Shown here: positions 8,440 to 26,547 of the stretch, piece by piece
Position numbering within the stretch: position 1 is the first letter of the stretch
Layout: every line of letters starts with the position of its first letter
DNA from: Planctomycetota bacterium
GTDB taxonomy: Bacteria > Planctomycetota > Planctomycetia > JALXBF01
Direction of reading: 5' to 3'
Length of the DNA stretch: 41,051 nt
Assembly: GCA_026991575.1 (NCBI GenBank)
Contig: JALXBF010000138.1
Coordinates: 75,099-116,149 of the forward strand
Made by a program: the position numbers and the translations under genes
Notes under the pieces: generated by a model
Told to the model about the DNA's origin: nothing
The model's database searches: none
Seen by the model: the letters and a program-made list of their open reading frames with translations, nothing else

Positions 8440-8491
8440 GGCACTGTCCTCCGATGCCGACGGTTGCTCGCACGGTGCGCCCCCGGGATGG

Positions 8492-9631
8492 TCAGCGGTG
8501 TACGTCTTTGCCGGTGATGCCCGGGTCAGTGGGCCGCCGTTCCGGTTTGGCCGGCTCGGCCGGGGCCGGCTCGCCGTGGGGCAACAACACCACTTTACAC
8601 GCTTCGCCGCGGCTCATCAGTTGCATGGCTTCTTCGATTTGATCGAAACCGATCCGGTGGCTGACCAATGGGCTCAAGTCGATGACGCCGTGCTCCAGCA
8701 ACCAGCGCGTCTTGTACCAGGTTTCGAAGATCTTGCGGCCGTTCAGCGCGCGGACGGTGAGGTTCTTGAAGATCAGGTTCTGGGCCACCTCAATCTCGAC
8801 CGGCTGCGACGGGATACCGAACAGCACGACCGTACCCCCGTTACGGACCGCGCGGAACGCATTGTTGATGGCAGCCGGTGCGCCACTCATCTCAAGCACC
8901 ACGTCGATCCCGTAGCCTTCGTTGGCGTCGATGAGCTGCTGCACGATGTCGCGGCCCCCTTCGGAGTTGATCGGGTCAAACACGGCGGTTGCCCCCATGC
9001 GCAGTGCCAGCTGTCGCCGGTACGGGATCGGGTCACAGGCATACACGTACGCGGCGCCGGAGGCTCGTGCTACCGCCACGGAGAACAGACCGATCGGTCC
9101 ACAGCCCATGATTGCTACCGACTGTCCGGTGATGTCCTGGTACAGCGTCGCGTAGACTGCGTTCCCGAACGGTTCCTGTAGCGTGGCGATGTGCGGTGGG
9201 ATGCGTTTGCGATCGTTATGCCAGATGACCTTTTCGGGAACGGCCACGTAGTGCGCAAAGGCACCGTCGCGATCGATGCCGAGGATTTCAGTACGCGGGC
9301 AGAGATGTGCTTGTCCGGTGCGGCAGTAGAAGCAGCGACCGCACGTGATGTGCGATTCGGCCGAGACATAGTCACCGACTTCGACATGCTCCACCCGCTC
9401 GCCCACCTCCACCACCGTTCCGGCAAACTCGTGGCCGAGCGTCAAGGGGGGACGCACACGCCCACGTGCCCATTCATCCCACTTCCAGATGTGCAGGTCC
9501 GTGCCACAGAACGAAGCTGCCTCGATGCGCACCAGCACCTCGTCCGGCTTGATCCGCGGCACCGGCACCTCGACAACCGTTAAGCCCGGTTCGTCCGCCA
9601 CTTTCCGCACGGCGAGCATGGTCTCAGGCAT
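8492..9631 (-). CDS. tdh: L-threonine 3-dehydrogenase (Zn-dependent MDR family)
   Basis: [65 protein letters not shown]. Directly upstream of kbl. ATG 9631 follows GAGAGG. Confidence 0.95.
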
Positions 9632-10027
9632 GGCAGCGCCACCTCTCGATACGGTCCGTTCCTGGATCGGCTTCACCGCGGCGGTATACAGCCCCCACGA
9701 CCGGCCGAACCGGAATTATTGGCTACGGGCGGAACGGAGTAAAAGTCGGCGCGCTGCGCTGGCCTGCTGGCAGCATACGAATGCCGAACGTGGCGAGCAG
9801 GAACCAGCCGAAAACCCGACAACTGGACAAATGGTAGGATAGAGTGCGGAGGAGGAACCGCACTGCGGAGGGGACGGTACCAGCAGCGGTGGCCAGCGAC
9901 CCCCCACGGAAACGTGTCAGAGATCGCTGTTCTCACGGGTCAGCTTAAGTAGCAGCCACCATCTTGGCTGGCGGGCCGAGAGGTTGTTGCGTGGCCTGTC
10001 CTGCGTCAACCCGCCCTTACTGCGCCC

Positions 10028-11413: not shown

Positions 11414-11529
11414 CGGGTATCGTCCAGGATCCAGCGAACCACCCAGACAATGATCAGAACTACCAGCAGCAGGCCCCAGGTGAGGAAGGCCAAATGTCGC
11501 GGCTTCAGGCTTAACGCCAACAGCTCCAT
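11410..11529 (-). CDS. Small single-TM membrane protein (39 aa), not in the ORF track
   Basis: Manual translation MELLALSLKPRHLAFLTWGLLLVVLIIVWVVRWILDDTR*. SD CAGGAG 5 nt upstream. Starts 54 nt after the ATPase stop. Confidence 0.65.
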   Translation of the reverse strand: MELLALSLKPRHLAFLTWGLLLVVLIIVWVVRWILDDTR

Positions 11530-11583
11530 CACTGCTCCTGCCGTCACAGCCAGCCCGAGCAACGCGGCGTTTCGCTGCTGCAG

Positions 11584-13803
11584 TTACCGTACCCGCCTCA
11601 GCCGCAGCGCATTGCTGACGACCGTCACCGAGCTCAGTGCCATGGCAAGTCCTGCCAAAGCCACCGGAACGTAGCCGAACGCAGCTCCCGGGATGAGCAA
11701 CGCGTTGTACGCGAACGCCCAGAACAGGTTCTGAGCGATGATCCGCCGTGCTTTTCGAATCAATCGGAAGCAGGCAAGCACCGGCTCCAGCCCGCGTTTC
11801 AGGACGACCACATCACCCGCTTCCCGCGCAATGTCCGACGCCTCCGCCACAGCTACGCCGACGTCGGCTGCAGCAAGGGCCGGAGCGTCATTAATACCGT
11901 CACCCACCACCGCCAACTGGCGTCCTTCCTTCCGCAAGGATTCGACCCAGGCCGCCTTCTCGTTCGGGGTCATGCCACCACGAGCGTGGTCCTCAGCGAT
12001 GCCAAGCTGCCGAGCAACCTGGCGTACGACCTCAGGGCGATCCCCCGAAGCAATGTAGAGCTCGTAGCCCATCCGCCGGAGTTGCTCGACGGCGCGCGGC
12101 GCCTCGGGGCGCAGCGGATCTTCGAGCAAGAATACCGCCAGCGGCTCCCCATCCAACGCCAGCCAGACCTCCGTGAGCCCGCTGGGCGCTGCGGCGAACG
12201 ATGGCGCCGCGCGGTCGCGGAGCACGAAGGCCCGGCTGCCGAGCTTCACCAGCCGGCCGCCAACCCTCGCCGAGACCCCCTTGCCCGGAAAGTTGATCAG
12301 ATGCTCGGCGCCCGCAGCGTTCGGCTCGACACCCCGCCGGCGGGCGTACGCCACGATGGCCGACGCCAGCGGATGGTTCGCTGCTGCCGCGACAGCCGCC
12401 GCCGACGCAAGCAGCGTGGCCTCGTCCCCCGCCGCGCGCATCTCAACAACCTGCGGCCGCCCCACCGTCAGTGTGCCGGTCTTGTCCAGCACGATGGCCC
12501 GCACGGCGCGCTCCAGCACCGACGGATTCCGTAGCAGGATGCCTAGCTCTGCGCCACGACCGGCGGCTACCTGTACCGCCACCGGTGTTGCCAGCCCCAG
12601 CGCACATGGGCACGCAACCAATAACACGGACCCGGCTGCCAGCAGAGCACGTTCCCAACCGGCAGACCCGACGATCAGGTGCCCGGCCAACGCAGTCAAC
12701 GCGATCGCTAATGTCACCGGTACGAAAATGCCGCTGATGCGATCGGCCATCCGCTCAATCTGGCTCTTGCGCGTCAGCGCTTCCTCAACGGTCTGGGCCA
12801 CTTGATAGATAACCGTCTCGGCACCCACTCGTCGCGTGCGGACGACGATGGCGCCGTCCACGTTCACCGTGCCGGCCAGCACCTGCGAGCCCGGCGCCAC
12901 GGCACGTGGTACCGGCTCCCCGGTAAGCAAAGCCTCCTGGACAGTCGACTGCCCCTCGACTACCTCGCCGTCCACCGGCACCTGTTCGCCCGGTCGGACC
13001 AGCACAAGGTCCCCCGGCTGGAGTTCGAACACCGACACCTCATGTGTCCGACGCCCTTCGTCGAGCCGCAGGGCCGTTTGCGGTGTCAGTTGCAGCAGGT
13101 GCTCGACCGCCTCGCCGGCCCGCAGCGTGGCACGGGCCTCTAGCCAGCGGCCGAAGGCAATCACCGTCAGCAGCAGGCACTGCTCGACAAGGTGTCCCAG
13201 CCCGGCCGGGATGGCTGCATTGCTCAGCATGAACCGGACCGCATGCCAGCTTCCCACGGCAAAGGCCACGCTGGTGCCCAGCGCTACCAGCGTGTCCATG
13301 TTCGCGCGGCGGCGGCGGAGCTGCGCGAACGCACCGCGATAGAACGGCAGCGCAACGTACGCCTGGGCAACTGCCGCGCACGTCAGTGCGAGCGCTACAG
13401 GCCAGATCCCGGTAACGAAGAAACGGCTGGCTACCAAGCACCCGACCACGACAGCCAACAGGGCTGCACCAGTGACGGTGCGCCGCGACCAGGTGCCGGC
13501 CTCCCTGAGGAGCGCGTCCCGGGCGCTGCGGCGCAGTCCATCCGCCACTCGTGCCCGATAGCCAGCTGCCTCCACGGCTCGCACCAACGCCTCGGCAGCC
13601 ACTGGCTTCTGCAGCCGCACGTTCGCCGCACGCGCTGCCAGACTGACGGTAACGTCTTCCACCCCCGGCACATCCCGCAGTGCCCGTTCAATGCGAGCCA
13701 CGCAGCTTGCGCAGTGCATCCCTTCGACGGCTAGGTGCACTTCACGCTCGGCTACCACCGCGGCTGAGTCGGTTTCGTGCCCGTGGCTGGATGTGTCACG
13801 CAT
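11584..13803 (-). CDS. Heavy-metal (Cu+) translocating P1B-type ATPase, CopA/CcoI-like
   Basis: HMA domain GMHCASC, NMDTLVALG, TGE, CPCALGLATP, DKTGT, HP, GDGINDAPAL, YN and MALSS (P1B-1 Cu+ signature). ATG 13803 follows GGAG. Confidence 0.92.
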   Translation of the reverse strand: MRDTSSHGHETDSAAVVAEREVHLAVEGMHCASCVARIERALRDVPGVEDVTVSLAARAANVRLQKPVAAEALVRAVEAAGYRARVADGLRRSARDALLREAGTWSRRTVTGAALLAVVVGCLVASRFFVTGIWPVALALTCAAVAQAYVALPFYRGAFAQLRRRRANMDTLVALGTSVAFAVGSWHAVRFMLSNAAIPAGLGHLVEQCLLLTVIAFGRWLEARATLRAGEAVEHLLQLTPQTALRLDEGRRTHEVSVFELQPGDLVLVRPGEQVPVDGEVVEGQSTVQEALLTGEPVPRAVAPGSQVLAGTVNVDGAIVVRTRRVGAETVIYQVAQTVEEALTRKSQIERMADRISGIFVPVTLAIALTALAGHLIVGSAGWERALLAAGSVLLVACPCALGLATPVAVQVAAGRGAELGILLRNPSVLERAVRAIVLDKTGTLTVGRPQVVEMRAAGDEATLLASAAAVAAAANHPLASAIVAYARRRGVEPNAAGAEHLINFPGKGVSARVGGRLVKLGSRAFVLRDRAAPSFAAAPSGLTEVWLALDGEPLAVFLLEDPLRPEAPRAVEQLRRMGYELYIASGDRPEVVRQVARQLGIAEDHARGGMTPNEKAAWVESLRKEGRQLAVVGDGINDAPALAAADVGVAVAEASDIAREAGDVVVLKRGLEPVLACFRLIRKARRIIAQNLFWAFAYNALLIPGAAFGYVPVALAGLAMALSSVTVVSNALRLRRVR

Positions 13804-14051
13804 TCGTCGTCTCCATACTCGGGAGTGGGACGCAAGCCCTTGCCGCACATGAAGTCTATCGCGACTTGCCCCCATGACGTCGCTGGCCCAGATGCGGTGG
13901 GCCCTGGACAAGAGCGTGCGAAGACTCTATCCTGCCAGTGTCTGTGACGTGGGCAAACGGCTCGGGGTGCGCGGGCAGCACATCCGGGGGCCGAGCGAGT
14001 ATGAGCCCGAAGCACCCAAGTGCCCCACTTGGGGTTCAGGGAGAGCAGGCC

Positions 14052-16307
14052 ATGAGAACGCATGCCTGGTCACGTGCCCTCATGCACGGTGCACTTGCCC
14101 TGCTGGCTGCTGTTGCGACGCTTGCGGCGCTCAGCGGCCTGGCCCGCGGTGCCAAGGAGGCGGGGGGCCCGGATCCGGAGAAGATACAGGAAGCCATTCG
14201 CCGGGGTATCCACTACTTGCGCGCCCAACAACAGGACGACGGTAGTTGGCGGTTTATCCGCGAGGTTCGCAAGAAGAACAAGAAAGAGGTTGAACGGCGG
14301 CACGACGCGGTCTACGACACCGGGCTAACTGCTCTAGCCGCCCTTGCCATGCTTGAGAACGGCGTGCCAGCCAGCGACCCGGCAATCCGCAAGGCTTACC
14401 GGTACGTCCGGCAAAAGGCTCCTCGCGAGACCAGGACCTACAATCTGGCCCTTTCGATCGTGCTTCTAGAACACCTCGGCAACGCCCGCGACCGCGTCCT
14501 CGTCCAGCAGATGGCCTACCGGTTGCTGGCCGGCCAACTGGACAGCGGCGGCTGGACATATGTCTGCCCCGTGAACCAGCGCCTGGAGCGGGACCCACGT
14601 GAGATCGCTCGCGCCAAGCGGCGTAAAGGCATCGGCGACAACTCGAACACTCAGTTCGCAGTGCTTGGTCTGTGGACAGCTCAGCGGATGCGGGCCTCGG
14701 TCCGCAGCGGATTCGAGCTGGTGGAGCAGCGTTTCCGAAACTCGCAGGCTCCCAAAGGGGGGTGGGACTACAAGAGTACTGGTGAATCGGACACCGCGAC
14801 CATGACGGCTGCCGGCTGCTTCGTGCTTGCCGTCACCTACGTTGCCCGCCAGCAGGCGGAGCTAGAAGGAGCCAGCGAGCCGCAAAGCGGGTTGGCCGGT
14901 CTGATGAAGGACGAAGTCTTTAAGAAGGCGTACGATCGCGTTGCCCAGTTTGCCCGTGGCATTCACCCACGCACCTCGCCATACCTGCTCTGGTCTATTG
15001 AGCGACTGGCCGTCGTGTTGGGAAGCCCGAAGCTGGGGGATGTCGACTGGTATGCGAAGGGGGCGGCCGCGCTGCTGGCTTCTCAGGACAGTGACGGAGC
15101 GTGGCGGATTTCGCACAAGGGGGTTGCAGACACCGCGCTGGCGCTGCTGTTCCTGAGCCGTGGTAACCTGGCCCGCGACCTGAGCTACGCTCTCCAAGGT
15201 GACCCGAACAAGCCATTCATGCGGATCCCCCGCAAAGGCAAGCCGGAGAGCTTCAAGGAATTCGGTGAGCTGGCCAGGCGGCTGCAAGACGGGGACATCG
15301 TCGAAATCCAGGGCAACGGACCGTTCGCGATCGCGGGCCAGGTGCTTAAGGCACGCGGTCTGACGATCCGAGCCGGCAAAGGCTATCGGCCGGTCATTGT
15401 GCGACGCGAGGACCCGCTGGACCATCCGGACTTCGTGCCCGAGATGCGCGCGATGTTCGTGGTCCGCGGCGGCCCTGTGGCGTTCGAAGGCCTCGAGTTC
15501 CGGGTCGATCCGGAATCGCCGGCCAAGCTGCCGTATTCGGCGATTGCCGTGGAAGCCGGCCAGGCCTTCATCACGCACTGCCGGTTTGGCAGTGAGCAGA
15601 AAGAGAACGTCATCGGGCTGGAGCTGACCGGCAGCGCTGCCGCGTCGCTTCAGGACAGCTTCTTCCTGGGCTTCGACCCTAGCATCCTGCTGCGCGACAT
15701 CGAGAACGCGCAGCTGGAGCTGTCCAACTGCTTGATCTTTGGCCGCACCGGCATTGCCGTTCGAACCGAAGAGGTCACCGCACGCTGTGCCATCCGCTTC
15801 GAGCACTGCACCGTGCACGTGGCTGACTCGGTCGTCGACTTCGGCGACTACTGGGGCGTTGCGTCGGTTGATGCAACCTGGAACGTGTTCCGCGCCGAGT
15901 GGCTCAGCAGGCGGTACCGGCCCACCGGGCTGCGGGTGCCGAGGCGATGGCGCGGTGAGGGCAACGCTTACGATGTTTTCCGCTGGGTGGGCGTGGAAGG
16001 ACGGGGCATCCGTGGCGTGCGCGATATGGAATCGTGGCGAAGGTACTGCCAGGGAGAGGACAATGAGAAGTATTCAGCCCGCGTCGAAGCGCGGTTCGTT
16101 ACCACACGCCTGCCTGCCGTTTTCCGGTACGAGATCCGACCGACCGATTGGGAGCTCAAGGAGCCGCGCCTCTTACCCGATGCCCCGGCCGATCTGACCG
16201 TCGGCTGCGATGTGTTCCGCATCGGACCGGGGCCATCCTATGAGCGGTTTCGCCTCGGGCAGCGCTACAGCCGCTGGCGCGCCCAAGTCGCGCATCGGCG
16301 GCCCTGA
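14052..16307 (+). CDS. Exported prenyltransferase/squalene-oxidase-repeat (QW-motif alpha/alpha barrel) protein with C-terminal beta-rich, probably beta-helix, domain
   Basis: Signal peptide. QW repeats QQQDDGSW, GQLDSGGW, SQAPKGGW, SQDSDGAW and GDNSNTQFAVLGLW. C-half has beta-helix-like strands (DGDIVEIQGNGPF, LTIRA, ITHCRF, LSNCLI, FEHCTV). Confidence 0.75.
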   Translation: MRTHAWSRALMHGALALLAAVATLAALSGLARGAKEAGGPDPEKIQEAIRRGIHYLRAQQQDDGSWRFIREVRKKNKKEVERRHDAVYDTGLTALAALAMLENGVPASDPAIRKAYRYVRQKAPRETRTYNLALSIVLLEHLGNARDRVLVQQMAYRLLAGQLDSGGWTYVCPVNQRLERDPREIARAKRRKGIGDNSNTQFAVLGLWTAQRMRASVRSGFELVEQRFRNSQAPKGGWDYKSTGESDTATMTAAGCFVLAVTYVARQQAELEGASEPQSGLAGLMKDEVFKKAYDRVAQFARGIHPRTSPYLLWSIERLAVVLGSPKLGDVDWYAKGAAALLASQDSDGAWRISHKGVADTALALLFLSRGNLARDLSYALQGDPNKPFMRIPRKGKPESFKEFGELARRLQDGDIVEIQGNGPFAIAGQVLKARGLTIRAGKGYRPVIVRREDPLDHPDFVPEMRAMFVVRGGPVAFEGLEFRVDPESPAKLPYSAIAVEAGQAFITHCRFGSEQKENVIGLELTGSAAASLQDSFFLGFDPSILLRDIENAQLELSNCLIFGRTGIAVRTEEVTARCAIRFEHCTVHVADSVVDFGDYWGVASVDATWNVFRAEWLSRRYRPTGLRVPRRWRGEGNAYDVFRWVGVEGRGIRGVRDMESWRRYCQGEDNEKYSARVEARFVTTRLPAVFRYEIRPTDWELKEPRLLPDAPADLTVGCDVFRIGPGPSYERFRLGQRYSRWRAQVAHRRP

Positions 16308-16477
16308 TCGATCCCCTGTGGGCCCGTACTCCCTGCACGCCACGTGCTGGCAGAGCAACCTCTTTGTCGCCCGGCCCAGGCCTGGCCAGTCGCTCCGCAG
16401 CGTTCCACGGCGCGCTGCAGTAGTCCGGAACGCCCGGTCAGTCCTCCGGCCTGCTGCCACGCCGGCGGCCGCGCTAC

Positions 16478-17758
16478 CTAGTTCCGCTCGATGGCACGAA
16501 TCCAGATATTGCGGTACTCGAACGGGCCCGCGGCCAGTGCCACCGGACCGGTAGACTTCTCCAACCGCTCGCCCACTTGTGGCCCGACCGGTACGCGATC
16601 ACGGATCAGTACGCCGTTATGCAGCACCGTGATCCGGCCTCTCTTGAGCACCCGTCCGTCAGCTCCCACGCGAGGGGCGCGAAACACAATGTCGTAACTC
16701 TGCCACTGGCCAGGATCGCGCGGTGCCAGCGCAACCGTGCCATTGTCCAGGTGCCTCAGCCAGATGTTGCGGAACTGCACCAGGTTGCCGTGGTCCTGCA
16801 GCATCAACGGACCGGCCTGGCAGACGTTGTGGTCCAGTGCGCCGCCGGTTGGTCCACGCAGCGCCACATCGTCGTGCACAAGCACGCCGTTGTGAAACAC
16901 CGTCATCCGCCCCTGTGCCCGTACGTTCCCGCGATCATCACACTCCGGCGCGGTGAACAGAATGTCGTACGTTTGCCACTGACGCGGAGGCCGGCAGGCA
17001 TTGACCAAAGGCGGGTACTGGCCGTAGATCGCCGCGCACTGCCCGGTGAAATAGGTGCGATTCTTGTACGAATCGAGTACCTGAATCTCGTAGCGCCCCT
17101 GCACGTAGACCCCGCTGTTGCCACGTCCCTGACCGCGAGCTCTCGGCATGTACGGGGTTGCGAACTCAACGTGAAGCTGAACGCTGCCGAACTGCGTCTT
17201 GGTGATGATGTTGCCGCTGCCCGGCCGACAGCGGAGCACGCCGTCAACAAGTTGCCACTGGGCCGGTCGACCATCCGGATGAATCCACTCACTGAGCGTC
17301 GTTCCGTCGAAGAGCGCTACGGCGTCGGCTGGTGGAGCAGTGTCGTCCCTGCCAGGCTTGACCACCTTCCCAGCTCCAGAACCGGGCACTTCGTAGCGAC
17401 CGTGTAACCAGACCGGTGCGTGAGTTGCTGACCCGTCCAGTGCGCGGAACTCCACATGAAGCTGCACGTCGCCGAAGGCAACGCGGCTAACCAGCCGCTC
17501 GCCATCCCTGGGAGCACGCAACACGGCTCCGTCAATCTCCCAGCCATCGCGTGGCTGCCAGGCGTCCAGCGACGGATCTTTCCGATCAAGCAGGACGGTG
17601 GCATCGGACGGCGGGCCACCGGGCGGACCAGGATCCACGTACGGCGGCTCTTTCGCACCCTGGGCCAGCGCGCAGCCAGCCAAAATCATCAGGCCGCAGG
17701 CTAGTTCCCCGCAAATCACCACCAGATTCGCCGCTCGGTGCCAGATGCCTCTGCGCAT
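16478..17758 (-). CDS. Exported DUF1080 (3-keto-disaccharide hydrolase family) protein, one intact domain inserted within a degenerate one
   Basis: PPADAVALFDG, LHVEF, GNSGVY, RYEIQVLDS, WQTYDILF, LQDHGN, FRNIW. ATG 17758 follows GGAGG and an N-terminal signal-like segment follows. Confidence 0.85.
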   Translation of the reverse strand: MRRGIWHRAANLVVICGELACGLMILAGCALAQGAKEPPYVDPGPPGGPPSDATVLLDRKDPSLDAWQPRDGWEIDGAVLRAPRDGERLVSRVAFGDVQLHVEFRALDGSATHAPVWLHGRYEVPGSGAGKVVKPGRDDTAPPADAVALFDGTTLSEWIHPDGRPAQWQLVDGVLRCRPGSGNIITKTQFGSVQLHVEFATPYMPRARGQGRGNSGVYVQGRYEIQVLDSYKNRTYFTGQCAAIYGQYPPLVNACRPPRQWQTYDILFTAPECDDRGNVRAQGRMTVFHNGVLVHDDVALRGPTGGALDHNVCQAGPLMLQDHGNLVQFRNIWLRHLDNGTVALAPRDPGQWQSYDIVFRAPRVGADGRVLKRGRITVLHNGVLIRDRVPVGPQVGERLEKSTGPVALAAGPFEYRNIWIRAIERN

Positions 17759-17905
17759 CACAACTGCCTCCGGTTCGTCAAAAGGGGACAAACCCATTGT
17801 AACCCCGACTGACGTTGTCCCTGCGACATGTTCGAACGCGTGAGGCACCTGACCCCCCTTGCACATACCGACGGCCGGCGGGCGGAATAGTCTCCCAGGG
17901 GCCGA

Positions 17906-18934
17906 CTAAGCCGACGCTCTCAGTTGTTCGGCTGCCTGAGGCGCACCGTAGTCGCGTGGGGCCTGTATCGGACGCGGCAACGACGTGGCATCGCGCAGTA
18001 GGGCCTCGTCCAGGAAGGCGTCGCCCCCATCGCGCCGTTTCGCGCGCGCGCATCGACGCACCGCCTCCAGCCACGCCCGCAGCGTCGGCCATTGGCCGAC
18101 GACCAGAGCTGCGGTGAGTCGTAGCGCGGTGCAGGGGACGTAGCGGCACCAGAAGAGACGGCCGCAGGCATTGCGCAGCATGAACAGATGCGCGTTCCTG
18201 ATGGTCAGGTACTGGAGCTGTCCCCGGTGGTACGCTGCCCGGAATGCCTCGCTGCCGCCGTGATGCACTACGGCGCGCGGCTCGAATAGCGTCGGCCAGC
18301 CCCGCGCCCGCGCTGCCAGGCACAACTCCAGATCTTCATACCGACCTGGAAAGTAGGCGTCACGGTAACCGGACAGAGCCAGGAAGCGGTCCCGCCGGAC
18401 GGCGAGCACAACGCCGGAGGAAACCGTTTCCACAGGTGCATGTTGCAACGGTGGCACCGTGTGCTCGGTTCCCACCAGACCCCACCGAGGACGCAACCGC
18501 GAGCAGCAGCCTTCGTATTCACCGGTCGCCGCGGTGCGCACCAGTGGCCCTACGGCGAAGGCGTCCTGGTGACGAGCCAACGTGCTGACCAGGTGGACGA
18601 AAGCCGTCTGCTCCGGCGCGACGTCGTTATTGCACAGGATCAAGACCGGCTGCGGTACAGAACGAGCTACCGACGCAAAAGAGGCAAGCCCTCGGTTCGG
18701 CCCACGCCATAGGCCTACTCGTGGGTAGCGGCGGGCGAGCCAGTCCGCTGCGGCCGATTCAACTGAGTTATCGACAACCGATACGACGGCCTGTCCTGGG
18801 CCGAGTCGGTCGGCAGCACGCACGACAGCGGGCAGGTAGCGATGCAGCAGTCGTGTGCCACCGTAGTTCAGCACGAGCACGTGGCAGTGCTCATTGCCGC
18901 GGTCTGTTCGGCGTAACCATCGGCCTTGTGCCAT
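17906..18934 (-). CDS. Family 2 glycosyltransferase (WbbL/rhamnosyltransferase-like)
   Basis: VLVLNYGG, VVDNS, NRGLA, LCNNDV, GRYEDLELC, VVHHGGS. Only the C-terminal 342 aa of the 603-aa ORF-track entry are protein-like. Confidence 0.82.
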   Translation of the reverse strand: MAQGRWLRRTDRGNEHCHVLVLNYGGTRLLHRYLPAVVRAADRLGPGQAVVSVVDNSVESAAADWLARRYPRVGLWRGPNRGLASFASVARSVPQPVLILCNNDVAPEQTAFVHLVSTLARHQDAFAVGPLVRTAATGEYEGCCSRLRPRWGLVGTEHTVPPLQHAPVETVSSGVVLAVRRDRFLALSGYRDAYFPGRYEDLELCLAARARGWPTLFEPRAVVHHGGSEAFRAAYHRGQLQYLTIRNAHLFMLRNACGRLFWCRYVPCTALRLTAALVVGQWPTLRAWLEAVRRCARAKRRDGGDAFLDEALLRDATSLPRPIQAPRDYGAPQAAEQLRASA

Positions 18935-21426
18935 CGTTGCCTCATCGCTGCGGCTACTGTCAGTGCCGCCAGAATCGCACCGTTTGCCGAAAGGAACATC
19001 GCGTCGTTGAACAGCAGAGCCAGATGGTAGTTCCACGCAGCGGTGCCGTAAATGGCGAAGGCCGACGCGTTCACCAGGAGCCGCACGGAAACCAGCGTAA
19101 AGAGCCCGGCGAACGGTGCTCGTCCCGGGTGGCCGTGTACCACTGCGCCGGCCAGCGCGCCTGCCGTGACAAGCACAACCACGTAGCGGGTCCACACGGC
19201 CACTGCCGCAAGCAGCATCGAGAACTGCTGATCTGCCAGTTCGACCCCGACGGCGCCGCGGTACAGCGTGTTGATGGGCAGGAACGTGTCGCGGCCGTCG
19301 GAAAAGTGAAACAGGTGAACGGCCAGCAGGGCAGCCAGGATCGTCCCGGTAGCTGTGGTCGTGTCGAGCGTGAGGCTGCCGGGGTCTGTGGCACGAATCC
19401 GGCAGCGGGATAGCCACACCAGACTGCCGAAGATAACCCATTGTTGGGGACACGGCAGCGCCAGGAGCGCGGCCGCGTGCAGCGTAGCCAGTGGCAGGCC
19501 CCCGCCAGCCAGTTCGGCCACGCACAGTGGGCCGAGGCCAACCCATGCGATACGAGCGGCCATCGGATCCACGAAGCGTCCGATGCCGGCCAGAGCCATG
19601 ATCGCGATGCCACCGGCGGCAATCACCGCGCGGCGGTCTCGCGCCAGCTGCACCGCGATGGCCGTGCCAACGGCCAGTGCGCCCAGGGCCGTTGCAGCGG
19701 TTACCACCTCCTGCCACGGCGGGGCCAACGGTTCGTAGGAGAGCTTCTGCCCAACGGTTGCAATGGCTGCCAGCGCGGCAAGGGCACCGGCCTGACGGAT
19801 CGACAGCCTACCGGGTGGGAACCGGGAGTGCCATCGAAGCAAGCTCGACCGCACCGACTGGGCAACCAGGCAACCAGCGGCCCAGTAAAGCAGCAGGTCG
19901 TTGCGTGTCCGCAGCGGGGCAGTGGCCGCGGCAACCCCTGTGGCCACTGCGCCGGGGCGTACCGTGCTCGATCGCCTTGGCCATGCTAACGCTGCCGCCA
20001 GGCACACAACAAACAGGCCGGCGGCGCGAAGCGGATGGCTTCGCCAGGTGGCAAAGCGGAAGGTGGGTAGTGCATCTGCAGCAGCGAATCCATCCACACG
20101 TCCCACCGGTGGTAGGATCCGCTCGAGCGCCACCAGCGCAACGCCGGCACTGAGGGCCAGCAGGACGGAGCGCGGCGATGAGAGGCCAACCGTCCGCACA
20201 TGCCAGCAGCTTAGCGCCACGCCGCACAGAAGCCACAGAACCCATCCGACCCGTGCCCAAAGGCGGGCACGCGCTTCAAGATCATGCAGCAGGGCGGCAA
20301 CGTCGTGGCTATTGGCTGGCGGGAGCGTGCGGCGCTGGCCACGAGCTGCGATGCGTGCAAGCGGGGGGCAGCCTGCGCGTCTGAGGCGAGCTACGTAGAC
20401 GGACAGCAGCTCGCGGCCTCGCTCCGCTGCCGTGCCGGCCAACAGTGCCATGCTCGGCTTACCCGCGTATCCGCCTGGCAAGGGGATATCCAGCCACGCG
20501 GCCATCAGGAAGGGCCAGGCAGACTGCGCGATGCGAACGGACGCTGCCGGTGCGATTGGTACAGGGCCAGCCACGGCGAACGGAGCCCAGCACACCTCGG
20601 GGGGACCGTCGCTGGAATGGCCCCCATCGTCGCGCACGCCATGGTCCGATACCAGGACGGTCAGCGTCTGGGGCAAGCAGAGTTGTAGGAGGTGCGCCAG
20701 TTGTTGGTCTACCGCGGCCGCCGCCGCCACGTACTCTCGGCTTCTGGCGCCGTGGCGATGGGCGATGGCATCGAGTGTAGCCAGGTGGACGACGACGACA
20801 CGTGCCTGCGCCGCCGGCCGCTCCAGCAGGGCTGCTGCTGCGGCTACCGCGCGACGATCGTGCTCGGGGATCCGCGCCATGTCATCCAGCACCCAGACGT
20901 AGGCTGGCCTGGTGACGTCGTGGAGCCATGCGTGGCCGGACGCGGGTCCGGCAAACCACTTGGCCCCCGGCAGCGCATCCAGCCAGGTCTCCAGCGCTCG
21001 TGGTTTGGGGGAAAGGTCGTTGTAGACGTCCCAGAGCGTTGCTGGTCTGCCCGCGAAGAAAGCCTTGTAAAAGGAAGCGCTCACTGGGAATGGCCCAGTC
21101 CGGTGCCAACCGGCGCCGCCCCTGCTCGCGACCTCGTTCCAGGTCGGCATAATGCACCGATCACGGGCGATGTCGGCGCGGAGCGCATCGACGATGAAGA
21201 CCACCAGGCGCTGAACCGTACGCCAGTGATCTCGGTGGCGACGTGTGTGCTCGGCAGACGAAGGTGCCGGTGGTGCTGATGCCCGAGGAACAGGATCCGG
21301 TGAGGCAAGCCGCACGAACAGGCTTGCCCCCGCCGCAAGCCAGACCAGGGTAAGCACAGGCACCAGTGCGTCGTGCACCTTCGGCCAGGCAGCTGACTGT
21401 AGCTCGCGGCGGCGTGCCATGCTCAT
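18868..21426 (-). CDS. Alkaline-phosphatase-superfamily membrane phosphotransferase resembling GPI ethanolamine-phosphate transferases (PIG-G/O/N)
   Basis: One N-terminal TM, then VFIVDALRAD, PFPVS..YKAFFAG, HLATLDAIAHRHG, VSDHGVRDDGGH, then a multi-TM C-terminal half. ATGA overlap with the upstream stop at 21423-21426. Confidence 0.75.
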   Translation of the reverse strand: MSMARRRELQSAAWPKVHDALVPVLTLVWLAAGASLFVRLASPDPVPRASAPPAPSSAEHTRRHRDHWRTVQRLVVFIVDALRADIARDRCIMPTWNEVASRGGAGWHRTGPFPVSASFYKAFFAGRPATLWDVYNDLSPKPRALETWLDALPGAKWFAGPASGHAWLHDVTRPAYVWVLDDMARIPEHDRRAVAAAAALLERPAAQARVVVVHLATLDAIAHRHGARSREYVAAAAAVDQQLAHLLQLCLPQTLTVLVSDHGVRDDGGHSSDGPPEVCWAPFAVAGPVPIAPAASVRIAQSAWPFLMAAWLDIPLPGGYAGKPSMALLAGTAAERGRELLSVYVARLRRAGCPPLARIAARGQRRTLPPANSHDVAALLHDLEARARLWARVGWVLWLLCGVALSCWHVRTVGLSSPRSVLLALSAGVALVALERILPPVGRVDGFAAADALPTFRFATWRSHPLRAAGLFVVCLAAALAWPRRSSTVRPGAVATGVAAATAPLRTRNDLLLYWAAGCLVAQSVRSSLLRWHSRFPPGRLSIRQAGALAALAAIATVGQKLSYEPLAPPWQEVVTAATALGALAVGTAIAVQLARDRRAVIAAGGIAIMALAGIGRFVDPMAARIAWVGLGPLCVAELAGGGLPLATLHAAALLALPCPQQWVIFGSLVWLSRCRIRATDPGSLTLDTTTATGTILAALLAVHLFHFSDGRDTFLPINTLYRGAVGVELADQQFSMLLAAVAVWTRYVVVLVTAGALAGAVVHGHPGRAPFAGLFTLVSVRLLVNASAFAIYGTAAWNYHLALLFNDAMFLSANGAILAALTVAAAMRQRWHKADGYAEQTAAMSTATCSC

Positions 21427-22307
21427 GCCGTCTGACCCCCTGGGTCCACCGCCTGGCACTCGCGCTCGACATGCCCACCACGTGCCCAGCGCAACAGCCT
21501 GGCGCCGCGCGTTATCGGGACGGCGATCGCAAGGGCCAGTAGCCAGCACGTACGAACTGTGCCAAACAGCGGTGGGCACAGCAGCCAGACGCCAGCCACG
21601 GCGGCCAACTGAGGCAACAGGTTTGGTACTTCTGTGATCCACAGCAGCCGTCGTGCCATGCGGCCGGCCGGTTCAGACCGTGACGACATCTGCCTCGATC
21701 GACTCCATGACTGTCTGCTGCCGGTCCTGTGGTAGAGAAATGCCTTGGCCACGGCTGCGCCGTGAGCTTCCGCCAGGAGGCCGCCGAGAAAAAGGGCCGT
21801 CGAGCTAGCCATGGCCACCGGGCCGAACAACCGGGCCAGAGCACCGTGCAGCGATTCGGCCAGGGCCCACCAGAGGGCCACGTGGACGACGAAATGCATG
21901 AGAAAATCGAGGTACGCACCAGTCAGAGACGCTTGCCCGGTGACGCGGGCCACCTGGCCGTCCACGTGGTCCAGCCAGTACCACACCCACAGCAGCAGCA
22001 CACCCAATGAGAAGCTCCATCCACTGCCGTTGGCGATGAAGGGCGCTGCGGCCAACCCAACGACGGCGGCGATCAACGTCACAACTGCCGGAGGTACCCC
22101 TAGCCGGCACAGCAGCCAGCTCAGCGGCAGTGCAGCGGGACGAGCGAACCAGCGTGCCAGGGGATAGCCAATCGACGGATCCTGCGGTTTGTAGGCACGC
22201 TGGCGGAACCGACGCCAACGCTGAAGGCCTGGCATCGGGCGGCGCCGCCGACGGGCGAACGTCTTTGTGGATCGCATGCCGTGTGCTGTCGTTCCTGGCG
22301 ACGCCAT
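21423..22307 (-). CDS. CDP-alcohol phosphatidyltransferase family protein
   Basis: PPAVVTL, then LDHVDGQVAR..GAYLDFLMH (DxxDGxxAR-G-D motif), several TMs. Start uncertain (22307, 22277 or 22235). Confidence 0.85.
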   Translation of the reverse strand: MASPGTTAHGMRSTKTFARRRRRPMPGLQRWRRFRQRAYKPQDPSIGYPLARWFARPAALPLSWLLCRLGVPPAVVTLIAAVVGLAAAPFIANGSGWSFSLGVLLLWVWYWLDHVDGQVARVTGQASLTGAYLDFLMHFVVHVALWWALAESLHGALARLFGPVAMASSTALFLGGLLAEAHGAAVAKAFLYHRTGSRQSWSRSRQMSSRSEPAGRMARRLLWITEVPNLLPQLAAVAGVWLLCPPLFGTVRTCWLLALAIAVPITRGARLLRWARGGHVERECQAVDPGGQTA

Positions 22308-22315
22308 CTGAGGCA

Positions 22316-23863
22316 CTACTCCCGCTCGGCTGCCTGGGTCGCCATCGAAGAGGCACGCCCTGGGCCGAGCCCGGGCTGCCGGGGCTGGCTGTACCAGACC
22401 CACAACAGCGTCACGCCCGGGGGCATGGACGCAATCGTGGCGCCGGTCACAACGTGCCACCAGCTGAAGCCGGCCAGCCAGCTGAGGGCCGCTAGCACAG
22501 CCGCGGCGTACAGGATCGCCAGCACCAGAGCGGCGAAGCTCGGCAGCAGGCGTCGTCTGGACCAAGTCGTGGCGACGCCTAAGAGCAGGCCGGCAGCCAG
22601 CGAGCTGAGTGCTGCCGCCCACCCGATGGCCGGCAGGGAGCCGGGCAGAAGCCGCAAGGCTGCGAAGGTGCCGGATGCGCCAGCGATCGCAGCGAACGCA
22701 TACGCGGCACACATGCGCCAGGAATGGCCCAGCGTGACCAGTGCGTGGCGCAAGGGCAGCGTTCCCCCAACGATGGTTGCTGCCGCAAGGGCCCCCCAGA
22801 CAGCCTCCAGCCCGACGCGGTATCGGGGCAAGAGCCACGCCGTCAGCGGGACACCGACCACTGCTGCTCCCGCCGCGATCGGAACCAAGAGCATCGTCAG
22901 CAGCGTTGCCCCGCGGAGGCCGAGCTCCAGCACCTGATCCGTGTCATTGGTCTCGGCCAGACGGATGCCCATCCGAGGGAAGAGGACGTTCGAAACCAGG
23001 TTCGCCTGGTCGAAGACGCGGCTGGCAATCAACAGCGACGTGGTGTACAGTCCCAGCAGTACTTCCCCATCCGCTGCGCACAGAATGACCATGGCACGCT
23101 CCGCGGAGCGGACGGCCATCAGGGCCAGTGCTCCGGCCGCCAGCGGCGCCCCCTGGCGCACCAGCCTGGCAGCTGTCTGACGGTGCCAGCGTGGCCAGAG
23201 GCTCAACCGTCGCGCCCGTAGCACAAACGTCAGGTTCGCGATCTCGGCCGCAATCGCGCCTGCCAGCAGTCCCACCAGGCCAAAGGCGACCGCACCGCCG
23301 GCCAGAAGGAACAACTCCAGCACCGCTCCGACGATCCGGGACCAGGCCGGCACGGTGAAGTCGAGCGAGGAACGGAGCGTGGTCAGGGCAAGCGTCAGGG
23401 CACGCCGTACGAACAGAAGCACGGCCGTGGCCACGAAGGCCAGTGCCCAATCTGGGCGACCGCGTAGTTGGCTGACCGCCGCAGCAACCAACAGCAGCAC
23501 ACTGACCACGCTGGCGGCCGCAACCTCAATGGCCATGGTGGTGTGCACGGTACGCTCTGCTCGGGTGCGATCGCCGCCGCCGGTCGCCACCGCAATCTCC
23601 ACCGCAGCGGCACGGGCAGCGCCCAGATCGGCGAAGCCCGCATAGTCCAGCACCAGGCGCACCGCCGACCAGATTCCCACCAACCCGGGGGTCAACGTGT
23701 GGCGTACGACATAGCTGGTAACGACGCCCAGGGCCGTCGCCACGTGGGAACTGGTCAGCACGGTCCAGCAATCCCGCAGAAAGCTGCGCCGAGCCGGGCG
23801 AGCGCTGCTGCTCGGTCCGCTCTCCGGCGCGCGTTGTGACGGCTGCTGCAAAGTGGCACTCAC
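22316..23863 (-). CDS. Wzx/PST-like oligosaccharide flippase (MOP superfamily)
   Basis: About 12-14 hydrophobic segments, LTPGLVGIWS, FADLG, LLGLYTTS, VLFPRMG. Heads a glycan-type operon. Confidence 0.8.
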   Translation of the reverse strand: MSATLQQPSQRAPESGPSSSARPARRSFLRDCWTVLTSSHVATALGVVTSYVVRHTLTPGLVGIWSAVRLVLDYAGFADLGAARAAAVEIAVATGGGDRTRAERTVHTTMAIEVAAASVVSVLLLVAAAVSQLRGRPDWALAFVATAVLLFVRRALTLALTTLRSSLDFTVPAWSRIVGAVLELFLLAGGAVAFGLVGLLAGAIAAEIANLTFVLRARRLSLWPRWHRQTAARLVRQGAPLAAGALALMAVRSAERAMVILCAADGEVLLGLYTTSLLIASRVFDQANLVSNVLFPRMGIRLAETNDTDQVLELGLRGATLLTMLLVPIAAGAAVVGVPLTAWLLPRYRVGLEAVWGALAAATIVGGTLPLRHALVTLGHSWRMCAAYAFAAIAGASGTFAALRLLPGSLPAIGWAAALSSLAAGLLLGVATTWSRRRLLPSFAALVLAILYAAAVLAALSWLAGFSWWHVVTGATIASMPPGVTLLWVWYSQPRQPGLGPGRASSMATQAAERE

Positions 23864-24066
23864 GGAAACCTACGTCTGTCTTCCAAGACCACGCCCTCTC
23901 CGCCCTATCTCACCGCCTTCGAATCATCCCGTCAACTTCGATCGTTCGCTGCGGCGTAAGCCAGCATTGGCACCGAACAGAGGACCTGCTCTAATGGACA
24001 GGCTGTCGGCTGAGATGCCACCCGCTCTAAGCACAAACCGCCCACCGAGCACGGGGGAACGCAGCG

Positions 24067-26547
24067 GTGTCGACCACGCCGGGCCTCGGCCACGGTGGCC
24101 TGGGGAGTTCCACAAGCGAACTGTTCCTGCAAGCATGTAGCGGTCGGCTCCGCGCAGCGGCGACCTTCCTCGGGCCATGGCTGCCGGTGGTGGTGGCCGC
24201 TGCCGTTGCCATGGCGCTACTGTCGCCGGCTCTGTTCTGCGGCTATGTGCTGAGCCCGGCGGATGTGATCCTGGTTGGCGAGGGGTTTATCGGACCGACC
24301 CACGAGCCGGCCAACCGGCTGCTGACCGACGTGGCGTTCGCCTTCGAGCCATGGCTGATCGAGGCCCGGCGTCAGCTCCGCGTCGGGCAATGGCCCTGGC
24401 TCAATCCCTACGCAGGGCTCGGTGCCCCCCTATTCGGAAACCTCCAGTCTGCTCTGCTGTGCCCGTTCAACTGGCCGTTCCTGCTGACCGGCAGCCCGCG
24501 AGCGTTCGCGTGGCAAGCGCTTGCGAAGCTGCTCTGCGCCGCCGCGGGGGTCGTGCTCCTGAGCCGACATCTAGCGTTGGGTCGCTCGGCCCAGACGCTA
24601 GCCGCCGTCTGCTACATGCTGGGCGGCTTCATGAGCTGTTGGCTGCTCTACCCGCTTGCCTCGTCGGCTGCCTGGTTCCCGTGGCTGTGCTGGTCCCTAC
24701 TTGGACTGGTACGACGGCCCAGCACCCGTCAAGTGGCAATCGTCGCTGTAACGGTGGCGCTGGCGTGGCTCGGGGGACACCCTGAGACTGTCATGCACAG
24801 CGTCCTCGGCGCAGCCCTGTTTGCGGTCATGGCGTTCCGGCCCCTGCGGCCGCGCACCGCGACGATCGCCGCTGTGAGTGCCGTGTTGCTGGGCACTGCT
24901 GTCGCCGCCGTCCAACTGGTGCCGTTCTTCAGTTACTTGAGCGTGAGCAATGTCTGGGAGCGTGGCTCGGCCACGGGTCGAACGCAGCCTGCCAGACGGC
25001 TGATGATCAGCGCAGCCTCAACGGTCTGTATGCTCGTGCCGTTTGCCTACGGGAGCTACGGCAGGAGAGACGCTCACGTCGAAAAGGCACTGGGATTGGA
25101 GAACTTCAACGAAATCGCTTCCGGCTACTGTGGCGTCCTCATTCCGGCGTTAGCCCTTCTTGCCGTGCTCGGTCGCAACCGGGCGCCACGCTGGGTGCGG
25201 GCGGCCGGCATGCTGGCGGTGCTTGGTTGGTTGGTGGGGTACCGATGGTTTCCCTTTTACGATGCGTTGCATCTTGTGCCTGGTGTTGCGCACGTGCAAC
25301 ACCAACGTCTGCTTCTGTGGCCGACGCTCTTCGCCCCACTGGTGGCTGCGTATGGTCTGCATCAACTTTCGACGGTGACGACTTACCACCGCCCGATCAG
25401 GGTCGTGACGCTGGCCTATGCGGTGCTTTGCACGACGCTAGCTCTCGGCGCTGTGGCGGTCGTCGCTGCCGGGCCGAGGCTCTACGCACATGCCCGTGAG
25501 CATTACGAGAACCTTGTCCGGCAGGGACTGCTGGACAGGCACACCGCACGGCTGAGGCTTGAGCAGCAGGGGAGGCGAGCCCCGCGGGCGCTTGCTGCTC
25601 ACTACCTGCATGCGTCCGCCCTGATGGCACTGGCCGTGAACGTGCTGTGGGCGAGCAGCGCTGCGGCGTCTACGGACGGCAAGAAGCGTTGGGTTCGGAA
25701 ACTAGGCCTGGGACCGTTGTGGCTGCTAGTGGTCATCGACCTGGCCAGCTTCAGTCTGAAGCAGTGGCCGTTCATACGCCCCGGTCAGTGGTTCCCGCCT
25801 CCGGCAGCTTCGCTTTCGGATGCCAGCCCCTTGGACCGCACGCTGTTCCTCCAGGACGTGATGCCCCCGAATGCAGCGACAGTTTACGGTGTCAGTGATC
25901 CGCGACTGTATGACGGCATGGAACATGCTGGGCTGGATCGGCTGTTTCGCTGCCTTGATCCGGCATCGGCCGGTACGGCCGACGTGCGCGGCCAGCAGCT
26001 GCTGCGGCGGCACGACTGGCGGCACAAGCTGCTGGCGGTCCTGGGCGTGAAGTGGATCGTGGCGCGCAGCCCGGCGGAGACGGCACCTTGTCTGAGGCGG
26101 GCTGGCTCGTTTGGCCGGGCCACGGTCTGGCAACTTGCCTGCCAACGTGATACCGGGCTATGGCTGCTGCCCCCCGCAAAGCGCGAGCCGCAGACCGAGC
26201 TTGACTGGCCAGAACTCGTACAACAGCTACGGCCACTGGACGTGGCGGAGCTGCACTGGGTGTCGGCCAACAAGCTTGTGGCCCACTTGGCCCCACAGGC
26301 CGGCGGTATTCCTGAGGGGACCGTTGTTCTGGGCATGTTGTGGCTTCCGGGCTGGCAGGCGCGGGCCGGCGGTGTAGCCGCGGAGTTGAGACCCGTGGCC
26401 GGTACCCTGATCGGCGTAGAAGTTACTCCGGGCACGCAGCAGCTTGAGCTCTCGTATCGGCCTCCCGGTCTGGGCCTGGCAGCAGCCGTGACGCTACTGG
26501 GCTTGGCCGCCTCGTGCGCGCTGTTTCGTTACGATAGGCAACTCTGA
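24067..26547 (+). CDS. YfhO-family membrane protein (GT-C fold glycosyltransferase-like)
   Basis: GQWPWLNPYAGLGAPLFGNLQSALL.PF, LGGHPET, AAVQLVPF, C-terminal PGWQA..G.....GVEV.PG..LELSYRP plus final TM. Confidence 0.82.
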   Translation: MSTTPGLGHGGLGSSTSELFLQACSGRLRAAATFLGPWLPVVVAAAVAMALLSPALFCGYVLSPADVILVGEGFIGPTHEPANRLLTDVAFAFEPWLIEARRQLRVGQWPWLNPYAGLGAPLFGNLQSALLCPFNWPFLLTGSPRAFAWQALAKLLCAAAGVVLLSRHLALGRSAQTLAAVCYMLGGFMSCWLLYPLASSAAWFPWLCWSLLGLVRRPSTRQVAIVAVTVALAWLGGHPETVMHSVLGAALFAVMAFRPLRPRTATIAAVSAVLLGTAVAAVQLVPFFSYLSVSNVWERGSATGRTQPARRLMISAASTVCMLVPFAYGSYGRRDAHVEKALGLENFNEIASGYCGVLIPALALLAVLGRNRAPRWVRAAGMLAVLGWLVGYRWFPFYDALHLVPGVAHVQHQRLLLWPTLFAPLVAAYGLHQLSTVTTYHRPIRVVTLAYAVLCTTLALGAVAVVAAGPRLYAHAREHYENLVRQGLLDRHTARLRLEQQGRRAPRALAAHYLHASALMALAVNVLWASSAAASTDGKKRWVRKLGLGPLWLLVVIDLASFSLKQWPFIRPGQWFPPPAASLSDASPLDRTLFLQDVMPPNAATVYGVSDPRLYDGMEHAGLDRLFRCLDPASAGTADVRGQQLLRRHDWRHKLLAVLGVKWIVARSPAETAPCLRRAGSFGRATVWQLACQRDTGLWLLPPAKREPQTELDWPELVQQLRPLDVAELHWVSANKLVAHLAPQAGGIPEGTVVLGMLWLPGWQARAGGVAAELRPVAGTLIGVEVTPGTQQLELSYRPPGLGLAAAVTLLGLAASCALFRYDRQL

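Follow-up and report, generated by a model that had tools for sequence, protein, structure and literature searches.

A planctomycete operon centred on a histidine-variant CDP-alcohol phosphotransferase, and its probable role in making a phosphate-decorated envelope glycolipid

The 41,051-nucleotide stretch of Planctomycetota DNA analysed here (the window; contig C138 of genome G000) carries a compact operon that probably makes a phosphate-decorated envelope glycolipid. Four co-directional minus-strand genes, placed head to tail by the open reading frame (ORF) listing and start-codon analysis, encode a flippase of the MOP superfamily, a CDP-alcohol phosphotransferase (gene abbreviated CDP-OH), a membrane protein of the alkaline phosphatase (AP) superfamily and a family 2 glycosyltransferase (GT2); a divergent gene encodes a YfhO-type membrane glycosyltransferase of the GT-C class (Table 1). 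We tentatively favour, at somewhat less than even confidence, a reading in which cytoplasmic synthesis of a lipid-phosphate head group would be followed by glycosylation, flipping, extension by GT-C enzymes and, last, phospho-decoration by the AP protein. On this view a small planctomycete family would have an assembly line for an envelope glyco(phospho)lipid, and the window would contain half of it. Judged by its sequence, the CDP-OH product belongs to a distinct, uncharacterised subfamily in which histidine replaces a signature aspartate, and this subfamily appears to be the conserved hub of the system.

Comparisons used a set of 41 related genomes, and CDP-OH neighbourhoods were fetched and annotated in 13. 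G001 represents the sister genus, the sole other genus of the family; G004 belongs to a different family, and f1, f3, f5 and f34 are family labels among the relatives. The Pfam scan of the window covered 26 ORFs, the remaining listed ORFs of at least 250 residues being left out, and the cut-offs used were 22 bits for PF01066, 28.5 bits for PF09586 and 23 bits for PF13440.

A coupled operon with a histidine-variant synthase

CDP-alcohol phosphotransferases are defined by four aspartates, and the full superfamily signature tested, D-x2-D-G-x2-A-R-x8-G-x3-D-x3-D, includes all four of these metal-binding residues. The window protein reads DHVDGQVAR-x8-G-x3-D-x3-H. The first three aspartates (D1 to D3) are kept together with both glycines, the alanine and the arginine, and the fourth (D4) is histidine. 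In the genome search the protein scored 28.5 bits on PF01066. Its best match in the PDB is the phosphatidylinositol phosphate (PIP) synthase PgsA1 of Mycobacterium tuberculosis (6h53, E 2.8e-4), whose D93, the D4 residue, aligns with the histidine. In the PgsA1 report D93 is given as the ligand of Mg-2 and, presumably, the base of the reaction, and the residue after D4 (R94 in PgsA1) as always lysine or arginine in PIP synthases and essential for binding inositol phosphate (PMC6506517). The corresponding residue is phenylalanine in the window protein, glycine in G001, histidine in others and asparagine in one homologue. All 13 planctomycete genomes have the histidine at D4, as do 20 of 23 database homologues; the other three homologues, with the canonical aspartate, are the weakest of those 23 matches.

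The subfamily was found in 16 of the 41 relatives at E≤0.001 (14 at E≤1e-17), and G000 has two further CDP-alcohol enzymes, both canonical. Database names for the homologues are generic, and no curated model matches the subfamily above its own cut-off; the two NCBIfam equivalogs for inositol-lipid synthases gave 44.8 bits against a cut-off of 180 (NF040950) and 39.6 bits against 170 (NF045883). The best curated or solved relatives are, weakly, archaetidylinositol-phosphate and PIP synthases, which are class I enzymes. From these residues and scores, the window enzyme does not appear to be a canonical phosphatidylinositol (PI) or PIP synthase. A 579-residue ORF of G004 (L047:6472-8211, plus strand, contig C51) contains two tandem CDP-OH domains, the first canonical (D-x3-D) and the second of the histidine type, an arrangement that points to linked steps for the two types.

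The ATG of the AP gene overlaps the TGA of CDP-OH as ATGA, read directly in the sequence (ACGGCATGAGC). Besides the ATG start listed in Table 1, CDP-OH has a possible GTG start at 22316, which overlaps the flippase stop by 1 nt. The listing, the start codons and the sequence agree with the first-pass annotation, made from the letters of this DNA, in describing a tight, ATGA-coupled minus-strand operon. Its 67-nt overlap of GT2 with the AP gene holds if GT2 begins at ATG 18934; with a GTG start at 18880 or at 18874 the overlap shrinks to 13 or 7 nt, and alignment to the GT2 orthologue of G001 leaves the choice undecided. No sigma-70-type consensus was found in the 203-nt region between flippase and YfhO genes.

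All five family assignments made at first pass hold. The YfhO-type protein falls under the PF09586 cut-off, and its orthologue in genome G002 (E 4.7e-79) scores 52 bits; all 30 of its Atlas matches are YfhO clusters, at 0.99. On the strength of this orthology we count the 826-residue product as a YfhO family member, and the divergent GT-C gene named in the earlier annotation stands. A PDB sequence search with this protein returned nothing meaningful. G000 has three more YfhO-like paralogues, on contigs C95, C106 and C65.

The window GT2 matches only PF13641 and PF13632 at E≤0.01. It has no PF00535 match at that threshold, no predicted hydrophobic or transmembrane (TM) segment and no solved relative in the PDB sequence search. 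We see in it no sign of the polyprenyl-phosphate sugar synthase type, and the suggestion that it makes such a lipid-linked sugar is not supported. Its orthologues adjoin CDP-OH in G001 (44% identity) and G004 (35%).

The AP-superfamily membrane protein

The AP protein begins with an arginine-rich segment and one TM helix, followed by a domain of nucleotide pyrophosphatase/phosphodiesterase (NPP) type at about residues 70-350 and some ten C-terminal TM segments. Because the arginine-rich segment precedes the helix, the positive-inside rule places the domain outside the cytoplasm, and the catalytic site is predicted to be periplasmic. AF2 modelled the AP domain with a pLDDT of 85-95 and the membrane half with one below 50; the latter is poorly modelled because the alignment contains only five sequences. 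By both sequence and fold the protein is nearest to NPP-type enzymes, with Xanthomonas NPP on top (profile E 6.4e-10, Foldseek E 1.5e-7), and the PDB sequence search gave NPP-type matches only. In the printed alignments the NPP metal ligands correspond to residues invariant in the family (D80, D219, H223, D261 and H262); H270 is likewise invariant and aligns with NPP catalytic residues. Ser116, within an invariant FPVSAS motif, sits at the nucleophile position in our reading of the ENPP6 alignment and is the candidate nucleophile. The NPP-type catalytic residues are intact.

The family is tiny. Only five clusters, its own included, were found at E≤1e-30 among 1.84 billion representatives. The protein is present in two of the 41 relatives (G000 and G001), G000 gave the sole full-length match in a 401-genome sample of the phylum, and scans of the genome_contigs and metagenome_contigs collections returned only the G001 contig. 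The three further members (P0008-P0010) sit on contigs of 4.8-21 kb. Weaker matches share the AP domain alone, and many of the 22 checked keep the overall layout at 750-970 residues.

The first-pass annotation called this protein PIG-like, after the glycosylphosphatidylinositol (GPI) ethanolamine-phosphate transferases PIG-N, PIG-O and PIG-G (Mcd4, Gpi13, Gpi7). With these it shares an N-terminal anchor, a non-cytoplasmic Phosphodiest domain, at least about ten TM helices and a length of 800-950 residues. By language-model features, clusters of eukaryotic GPI ethanolamine-phosphate transferases 3, 2 and 1 (PIG-O/G/N) are among its nearest Atlas neighbours, at 0.95-0.96, and archaeal and Myxococcota clusters of about 820 residues are as close as the eukaryotic ones. 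The membrane domain differs, being alignable only within the five-member family, as does the candidate serine nucleophile in FPVSAS. None of the five members matches PF04987 (PigN) or PF19316 (PIGO_PIGG) even at E≤10, and a scan of 56 sequence relatives, at E≤0.001 or a tighter threshold, found neither domain. A PigN search of the G000 genome was also without a match, a search in which the controls were silent too. Within the 150 best relatives, a hidden Markov model of the C-terminal half recognises the five family members and no others. Eukaryotic GPI ethanolamine-phosphate transferase structures are absent from the Foldseek matches listed for the model, among which LtaP and ICR/EptA-type domains appear, and one of the five members has a PF00884 (Sulfatase) match, at E 0.0086. 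Since the Atlas neighbours are alike and the membrane-domain models unmatched, "PIG-like" is a fair description of the architecture and, as to homology, a lead only.

The chemistry proposed below, in which a phospholipid would donate a phospho-alcohol to a glycan in the periplasm, would by analogy be shared with EptA/MCR-1, OpgB, LtaS, GacH and BcsG. Enzymes of the EptA/LtaS type are sulfatase-type proteins with N-terminal TM helices followed by a C-terminal catalytic domain. In the window protein this order is reversed, and the domain is NPP-like with Phosphodiest as its best family. A distant 948-residue AP relative occurs in family f34 (L042:3369-6840, genome G200, contig C7), 3-5 kb from LpxD and LpxB, and hints that the wider AP group may act on lipid A or lipopolysaccharide (LPS); neither CDP-OH nor flippase gene lies near it at this one annotated f34 locus.

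Conserved neighbours and a second locus

Across the 13 annotated neighbourhoods, CDP-OH has an orthologous MOP flippase beside it in eight genomes and a GT-C of any kind in nine, either PMT_2-like with 600-720 residues (seven genomes) or YfhO-like (G000 and G002). In several clusters the CDP-OH ORF shares 4 nt with that of a GT-C or flippase. The window-type GT2 adjoins CDP-OH in three genomes (G000, G001 and G004) and the AP gene in two (G000 and G001). A GFO_IDH_MocA oxidoreductase gene is found beside it in five, all of family f5, with a xylose-isomerase-like or ROK gene adjoining in four of these. The stable core is CDP-OH with flippase and GT-C. The five window genes do not form one conserved unit, and the test of their synteny has a mixed outcome: four of the genes are together in G001 and three in G002, and all five are together only in G000.

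In G001 a single run comprises flippase, CDP-OH, AP, GT2, a second GT2 (GT2'), GT4, GT9, a PMT_2-like GT-C and a 551-residue gene, with the YfhO orthologue on a separate contig. G002 repeats the window arrangement of flippase and CDP-OH divergent from YfhO, with AP and GT2 missing from the locus. The remainder of the G001 run has its counterpart in G000 on contig C152, where GT2', GT4, GT9, GT-C and the 551-residue gene show 44-55% identity to G001 and are joined by an LPG_synthase_TM gene. Further on lie genes for a DUF7133/cytochrome-c protein, for Ino1 and for a xylose-isomerase-like TIM-barrel protein. The G004 cluster holds GT2, the tandem CDP-OH fusion, GT2', a methyltransferase gene, GT4 and GT9, and the f5 clusters consist of flippase, GT-C, CDP-OH and sugar-type oxidoreductase or isomerase genes only, with no cytoplasmic glycosyltransferases. 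No cytidylyltransferase gene was found among the ORFs scanned around CDP-OH clusters. Some 5 kb upstream of its cluster, G001 has a Cas3-like helicase/nuclease gene (L003:30-3149, plus strand, contig C109), with three Pfam-less ORFs between.

The PMT_2-like protein models as a GT-C (pTM 0.69). Its top Foldseek matches are ArnT, STT3, AftA and AglB; GPI mannosyltransferase I ranks 26th and PimE 29th, at E of about 0.05. The C152 GT-C has a weak GT87 match of 20 bits, under the cut-off.

As stated at first pass, no Wzy, Wzz, WaaL or initiating phosphoglycosyltransferase is encoded among the 26 scanned window ORFs, and none of these, nor any other initiating transferase, is among the 13 scanned ORFs of the G001 locus. 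Three Wzy_C genes occur in G000, all on other contigs (C104, C116 and C118). An ordinary Wzy-dependent O-antigen locus was rejected on the absence of Wzy, Wzz, WaaL and an initiating transferase from these scanned ORFs of the window and the G001 cluster.

The window has a GC content of 65%, and adjoining genes carry the domains DUF1559 and DUF1570 by Pfam. Downstream of GT2 by 39 nt and on the same strand (16478-17866, minus) is a gene for a 462-residue protein with 3-keto-disaccharide hydrolase domains; it is probably outside the system, because the G001 cluster does not conserve it. Farther away are a 789-residue protein (13938-16307, plus) with weak, short matches to squalene-hopene cyclase repeats and an A-macroglobulin TED domain, and an ordinary heavy-metal P-type ATPase (11584-13911, minus) with HMA, E1-E2 ATPase and HAD domains.

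Table 1. Genes of the window operon, the divergent gene and the second locus of the same genome
Feature	Coordinates	Strand	Remarks
MOP-superfamily flippase (Polysacc_synt_3)	22316..23863	-	515 aa, operon gene 1; PF13440 42.8 bits, E 5.1e-11
His-variant CDP-alcohol phosphotransferase	21423..22307	-	ATG start, 294 aa; PF01066 24.6 bits
AP-superfamily membrane protein	18868..21426	-	852 aa; PF01663 35.9 bits
GT2 glycosyltransferase, soluble GT-A type	17906..18934	-	342 aa, final operon gene; PF13641 40.1 bits
Divergent intergenic region, flippase start to YfhO start	23864..24066	.	203 nt
YfhO-family GT-C membrane glycosyltransferase	24067..26547	+	826 aa; PF09586 22.7 bits
Second G000 locus, L056 (C152:22000-41900)	genes 4230-12575 and 15800-17056		GT2', GT4, GT9, PMT_2-like GT-C, 551-aa gene, LPG_synthase_TM

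A proposed pathway and its alternatives

On the reading we favour, the histidine-variant enzyme would act at the cytoplasmic face and couple an alcohol, X, to a lipid phosphate. The lipid would most likely be the phosphatidyl group of CDP-diacylglycerol, a likely donor because no cytidylyltransferase gene is among the ORFs scanned near the clusters. X would be a polyol, cyclitol or sugar-type head group, inositol phosphate being a candidate and no more. Soluble or peripheral glycosyltransferases (GT2 of the window; GT2', GT4 and GT9 of C152) would extend lipid-P-X, and the MOP flippase would carry the product to the periplasmic leaflet. There GT-C enzymes, the YfhO-like protein of the window and the PMT_2-like protein of C152, would act on it, and the AP enzyme would move a phospho-alcohol from a phospholipid donor to the glycan, releasing diacylglycerol, as GPI ethanolamine-phosphate transferases, EptA, OpgB and LtaS do. 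Of all this, the order and coupling of the genes, their families, the histidine at D4, the AP catalytic residues and the synteny between genomes are observed; substrates, membrane sidedness, the sequence of steps and a common product of the two loci are inferred. Stepwise lipid assembly, flipping and periplasmic extension fits because the G001 cluster adds GT4, GT9 and a second GT-C, and to this extent the logic of cytoplasmic glycosylation, flipping and GT-C transfer proposed at first pass is strengthened. The resemblance to GPI synthesis is one of logic, and that of phosphatidylinositol mannoside (PIM) or lipoteichoic acid (LTA) synthesis fits equally well.

The PIM, lipomannan and lipoarabinomannan pathway (PgsA1, the GT4 enzymes PimA and PimB', and the GT87 GT-C PimE) shows both the likeness and its limits. 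As here, the head-group synthase is a class I CDP-alcohol phosphotransferase whose gene clusters with those of cytoplasmic glycosyltransferases, and among solved proteins PgsA1 is the window enzyme's best relative. The product here would likewise be flipped and extended by a GT-C, and the partner-locus GT-C has the weak GT87 match given above. The window enzyme differs in its histidine at D4 and in the missing inositol-phosphate-binding arginine, and PimE is a distant match by fold. PIM synthesis is not known to use an AP-type phosphotransferase, a GT9 or a MOP flippase.

Gene order bears on whether inositol is the head group. Ino1 lies 5.5 kb downstream of the C152 GT-C in G000; in G001 it is found at the end of contig C292, beside the LPG_synthase_TM orthologue. 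The 551-residue gene, which precedes LPG_synthase_TM in G000, is cut by the end of the G001 contig C109; a join of C109 to C292 would be compatible with the G000 order, but the contig ends share no sequence. Parts of a study of Bacteroides inositol-lipid clusters place a lysylphosphatidylglycerol-synthase-like gene near them and mention a BT_1521 homologue (PMC9246714). The Bacteroides cluster (MIPS, PIP synthase and PIP phosphatase; BT_1522-1526) has its CDP-alcohol enzyme, Ino1 and the lysylphosphatidylglycerol-synthase-like gene in one neighbourhood, and C152 of G000 shares the LPG_synthase_TM and Ino1 genes. The G000 system differs in that CDP-OH lies on another contig than Ino1 and is of the histidine type, and no PIP phosphatase was identified. 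Counted against an inositol head group are the missing arginine specific to PIP synthases and the distribution of Ino1, which four of the 14 genomes carrying the subfamily lack. The parallel with PI synthase drawn at first pass survives as a weak likeness to inositol-phosphate synthases, and fails at D4, at the arginine or lysine that should follow it and in these four genomes.

Several findings weigh against the pathway we favour. Ino1 occurs in ten of the 14 genomes that carry the subfamily and in 16 of the 27 that lack it, and so does not discriminate between them. Since histidine replaces the presumed base and Mg-2 ligand described in parts of the PgsA1 report (PMC6506517), the chemistry of the synthase may differ. 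The argument that the window locus and C152 would serve one product comes from their contiguity in one other genome, G001. Of the 13 CDP-OH clusters 11 lack the AP gene, which is therefore an accessory and not a core step, and the f5 clusters, having no cytoplasmic glycosyltransferases, suit a lipid-linked donor no worse than an anchor. GT9 enzymes are otherwise known as heptosyltransferases of the LPS core, and for this reason the acceptor could be LPS instead of a new lipid.

The main rival makes lipid-P-X a lipid-linked donor. We regard it as unlikely, yet the least so of the alternatives. CDP-OH would replace the GT2 of three-component systems, the MOP flippase would export lipid-P-X, a GT-C would transfer X and the AP enzyme P-X to LPS core, peptidoglycan or protein, and GT2, GT4 and GT9 would build the acceptor. 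Three-component systems (CsbB/GtcA/YfhO, GtrB/GtrA/GtrC and ArnC/ArnEF/ArnT) also encode a lipid-phosphate head-group synthase, a flippase and a GT-C together, and include a YfhO member; the CDP-OH/flippase/GT-C triad is the most conserved unit among our clusters, and in f5 it stands with oxidoreductase, xylose-isomerase-like or ROK genes that could prepare X. The ATGA coupling of CDP-OH to AP would be expected of a donor synthase and its user, and the f34 gene near LpxD and LpxB points the same way. The likeness has its limits. The synthase here is a CDP-alcohol phosphotransferase and not a GT2, the window GT2 is without polyprenyl-phosphate glycosyltransferase features, and the flippase is a 500-residue MOP protein; the flippases of known three-component systems are small proteins of GtrA or SMR type, and MOP flippases usually carry lipid-linked oligosaccharides. 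A GT-C could use lipid-P-X only if X were linked through its anomeric carbon, and we know of no CDP-alcohol phosphotransferase that forms such a bond. In G001 and G004, moreover, CDP-OH sits among four cytoplasmic glycosyltransferase genes, more like assembly on its own product. A donor accounts better for the minimal f5 clusters and worse for the glycosyltransferase-rich ones of f1 and f3.

MOP flippases classically carry undecaprenyl-diphosphate-linked oligosaccharides, a point in favour of a polyprenyl-linked glycan, which we consider improbable. CDP-OH would initiate it on undecaprenyl phosphate, glycosyltransferases would build it, the Wzx-like flippase would export it, a GT-C would ligate it and AP would add a phospho-substituent. 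Several cytoplasmic glycosyltransferases are at hand, and the ORFs scanned in the window and in the G001 cluster offer no alternative enzyme for initiation. Opposed to this, the scanned cluster ORFs include no gene for making a CDP-activated alcohol, Wzy, Wzz and WaaL are absent from the scanned ORFs nearby with the three Wzy_C genes on other contigs, and no CDP-alcohol phosphotransferase is known to us to take a polyprenyl phosphate acceptor.

More doubtful still is a true bacterial counterpart of GPI, in which a PI-type lipid would be glycosylated, flipped, mannosylated by a GT-C and given an ethanolamine-phosphate-type bridge by a PIG-N/O/G homologue, and might anchor proteins. The layout and Atlas neighbours of the AP protein, the inositol-phosphate lipid synthases among the best CDP-OH matches, the presence of Ino1 near C152 and the GT4 and GT-C genes of the cluster all agree with it. 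Set against these are the unmatched PigN and PIGO_PIGG domains, inositol-lipid synthase scores of 40-45 bits where 170-180 are called for, the replacement of arginine or lysine after D4 by F, G or H, and the four genomes without Ino1. The modelled GT-C is nearest to ArnT, STT3 and AftA. The PIG-A-specific (PF08288), PIG-M (PF05007) and PIG-V (PF04188) domains have no match in G000, a weak test in which the control genomes were silent too. The least probable of the alternatives is an LTA-like polymer: CDP-OH would make a dedicated phospholipid, from which AP would repeatedly pass the head-group phosphate to a glycolipid primer, in the way LtaS uses phosphatidylglycerol, and YfhO would add sugar to the chain. 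A PgsA-type enzyme, an AP transferase, YfhO, GT2 and a flippase do parallel the type I LTA machinery. The AP enzyme, however, is of NPP type with its catalytic domain N-terminal, not of the LtaS/sulfatase type with five N-terminal TM helices, YfhO is unlinked to the AP gene in G001, and to our knowledge, no search having been aimed at it, no such polymer has been described from the planctomycete phylum.

All parts of the system come from known superfamilies, and lipid-linked assembly, flipping and periplasmic finishing are familiar from PIM, GPI, LTA and LPS synthesis. Three features are new. The hub is a conserved histidine-type CDP-OH subfamily; across a planctomycete class its genes are linked to those of MOP flippases and GT-C enzymes; and it is translationally coupled to a rare AP-type membrane transferase with, as far as sequence tells, the layout of GPI transferases. 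We found no description of the subfamily, of such a cluster or of prokaryotic relatives of GPI ethanolamine-phosphate transferases in literature searches whose coverage excluded subscription journals. With the histidine-type enzyme, either the lipid head group itself or the route to it would be new. The AP protein falls in an uncharacterised group of 750-970 residues that has the layout of GPI ethanolamine-phosphate transferases without their Pfam membrane domains, and a characterised prokaryotic member would be a tractable stand-in for the GPI enzymes. Improbable as we hold it, a planctomycete relative of these transferases, coupled to a histidine-type synthase of an inositol- or cyclitol-phospholipid and working with GT4, GT9, GT-C enzymes and a MOP flippase, may build a phospho-bridged glycophospholipid; if so, this would be a bacterial analogue, possibly an evolutionary relative, of GPI and PIM anchors in the Planctomycetes-Verrucomicrobia-Chlamydiae (PVC) group. 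Planctomycete envelopes are poorly understood, and the module of head-group synthase, flippase and GT-C offers a concrete gene set for testing an envelope pathway in these bacteria.

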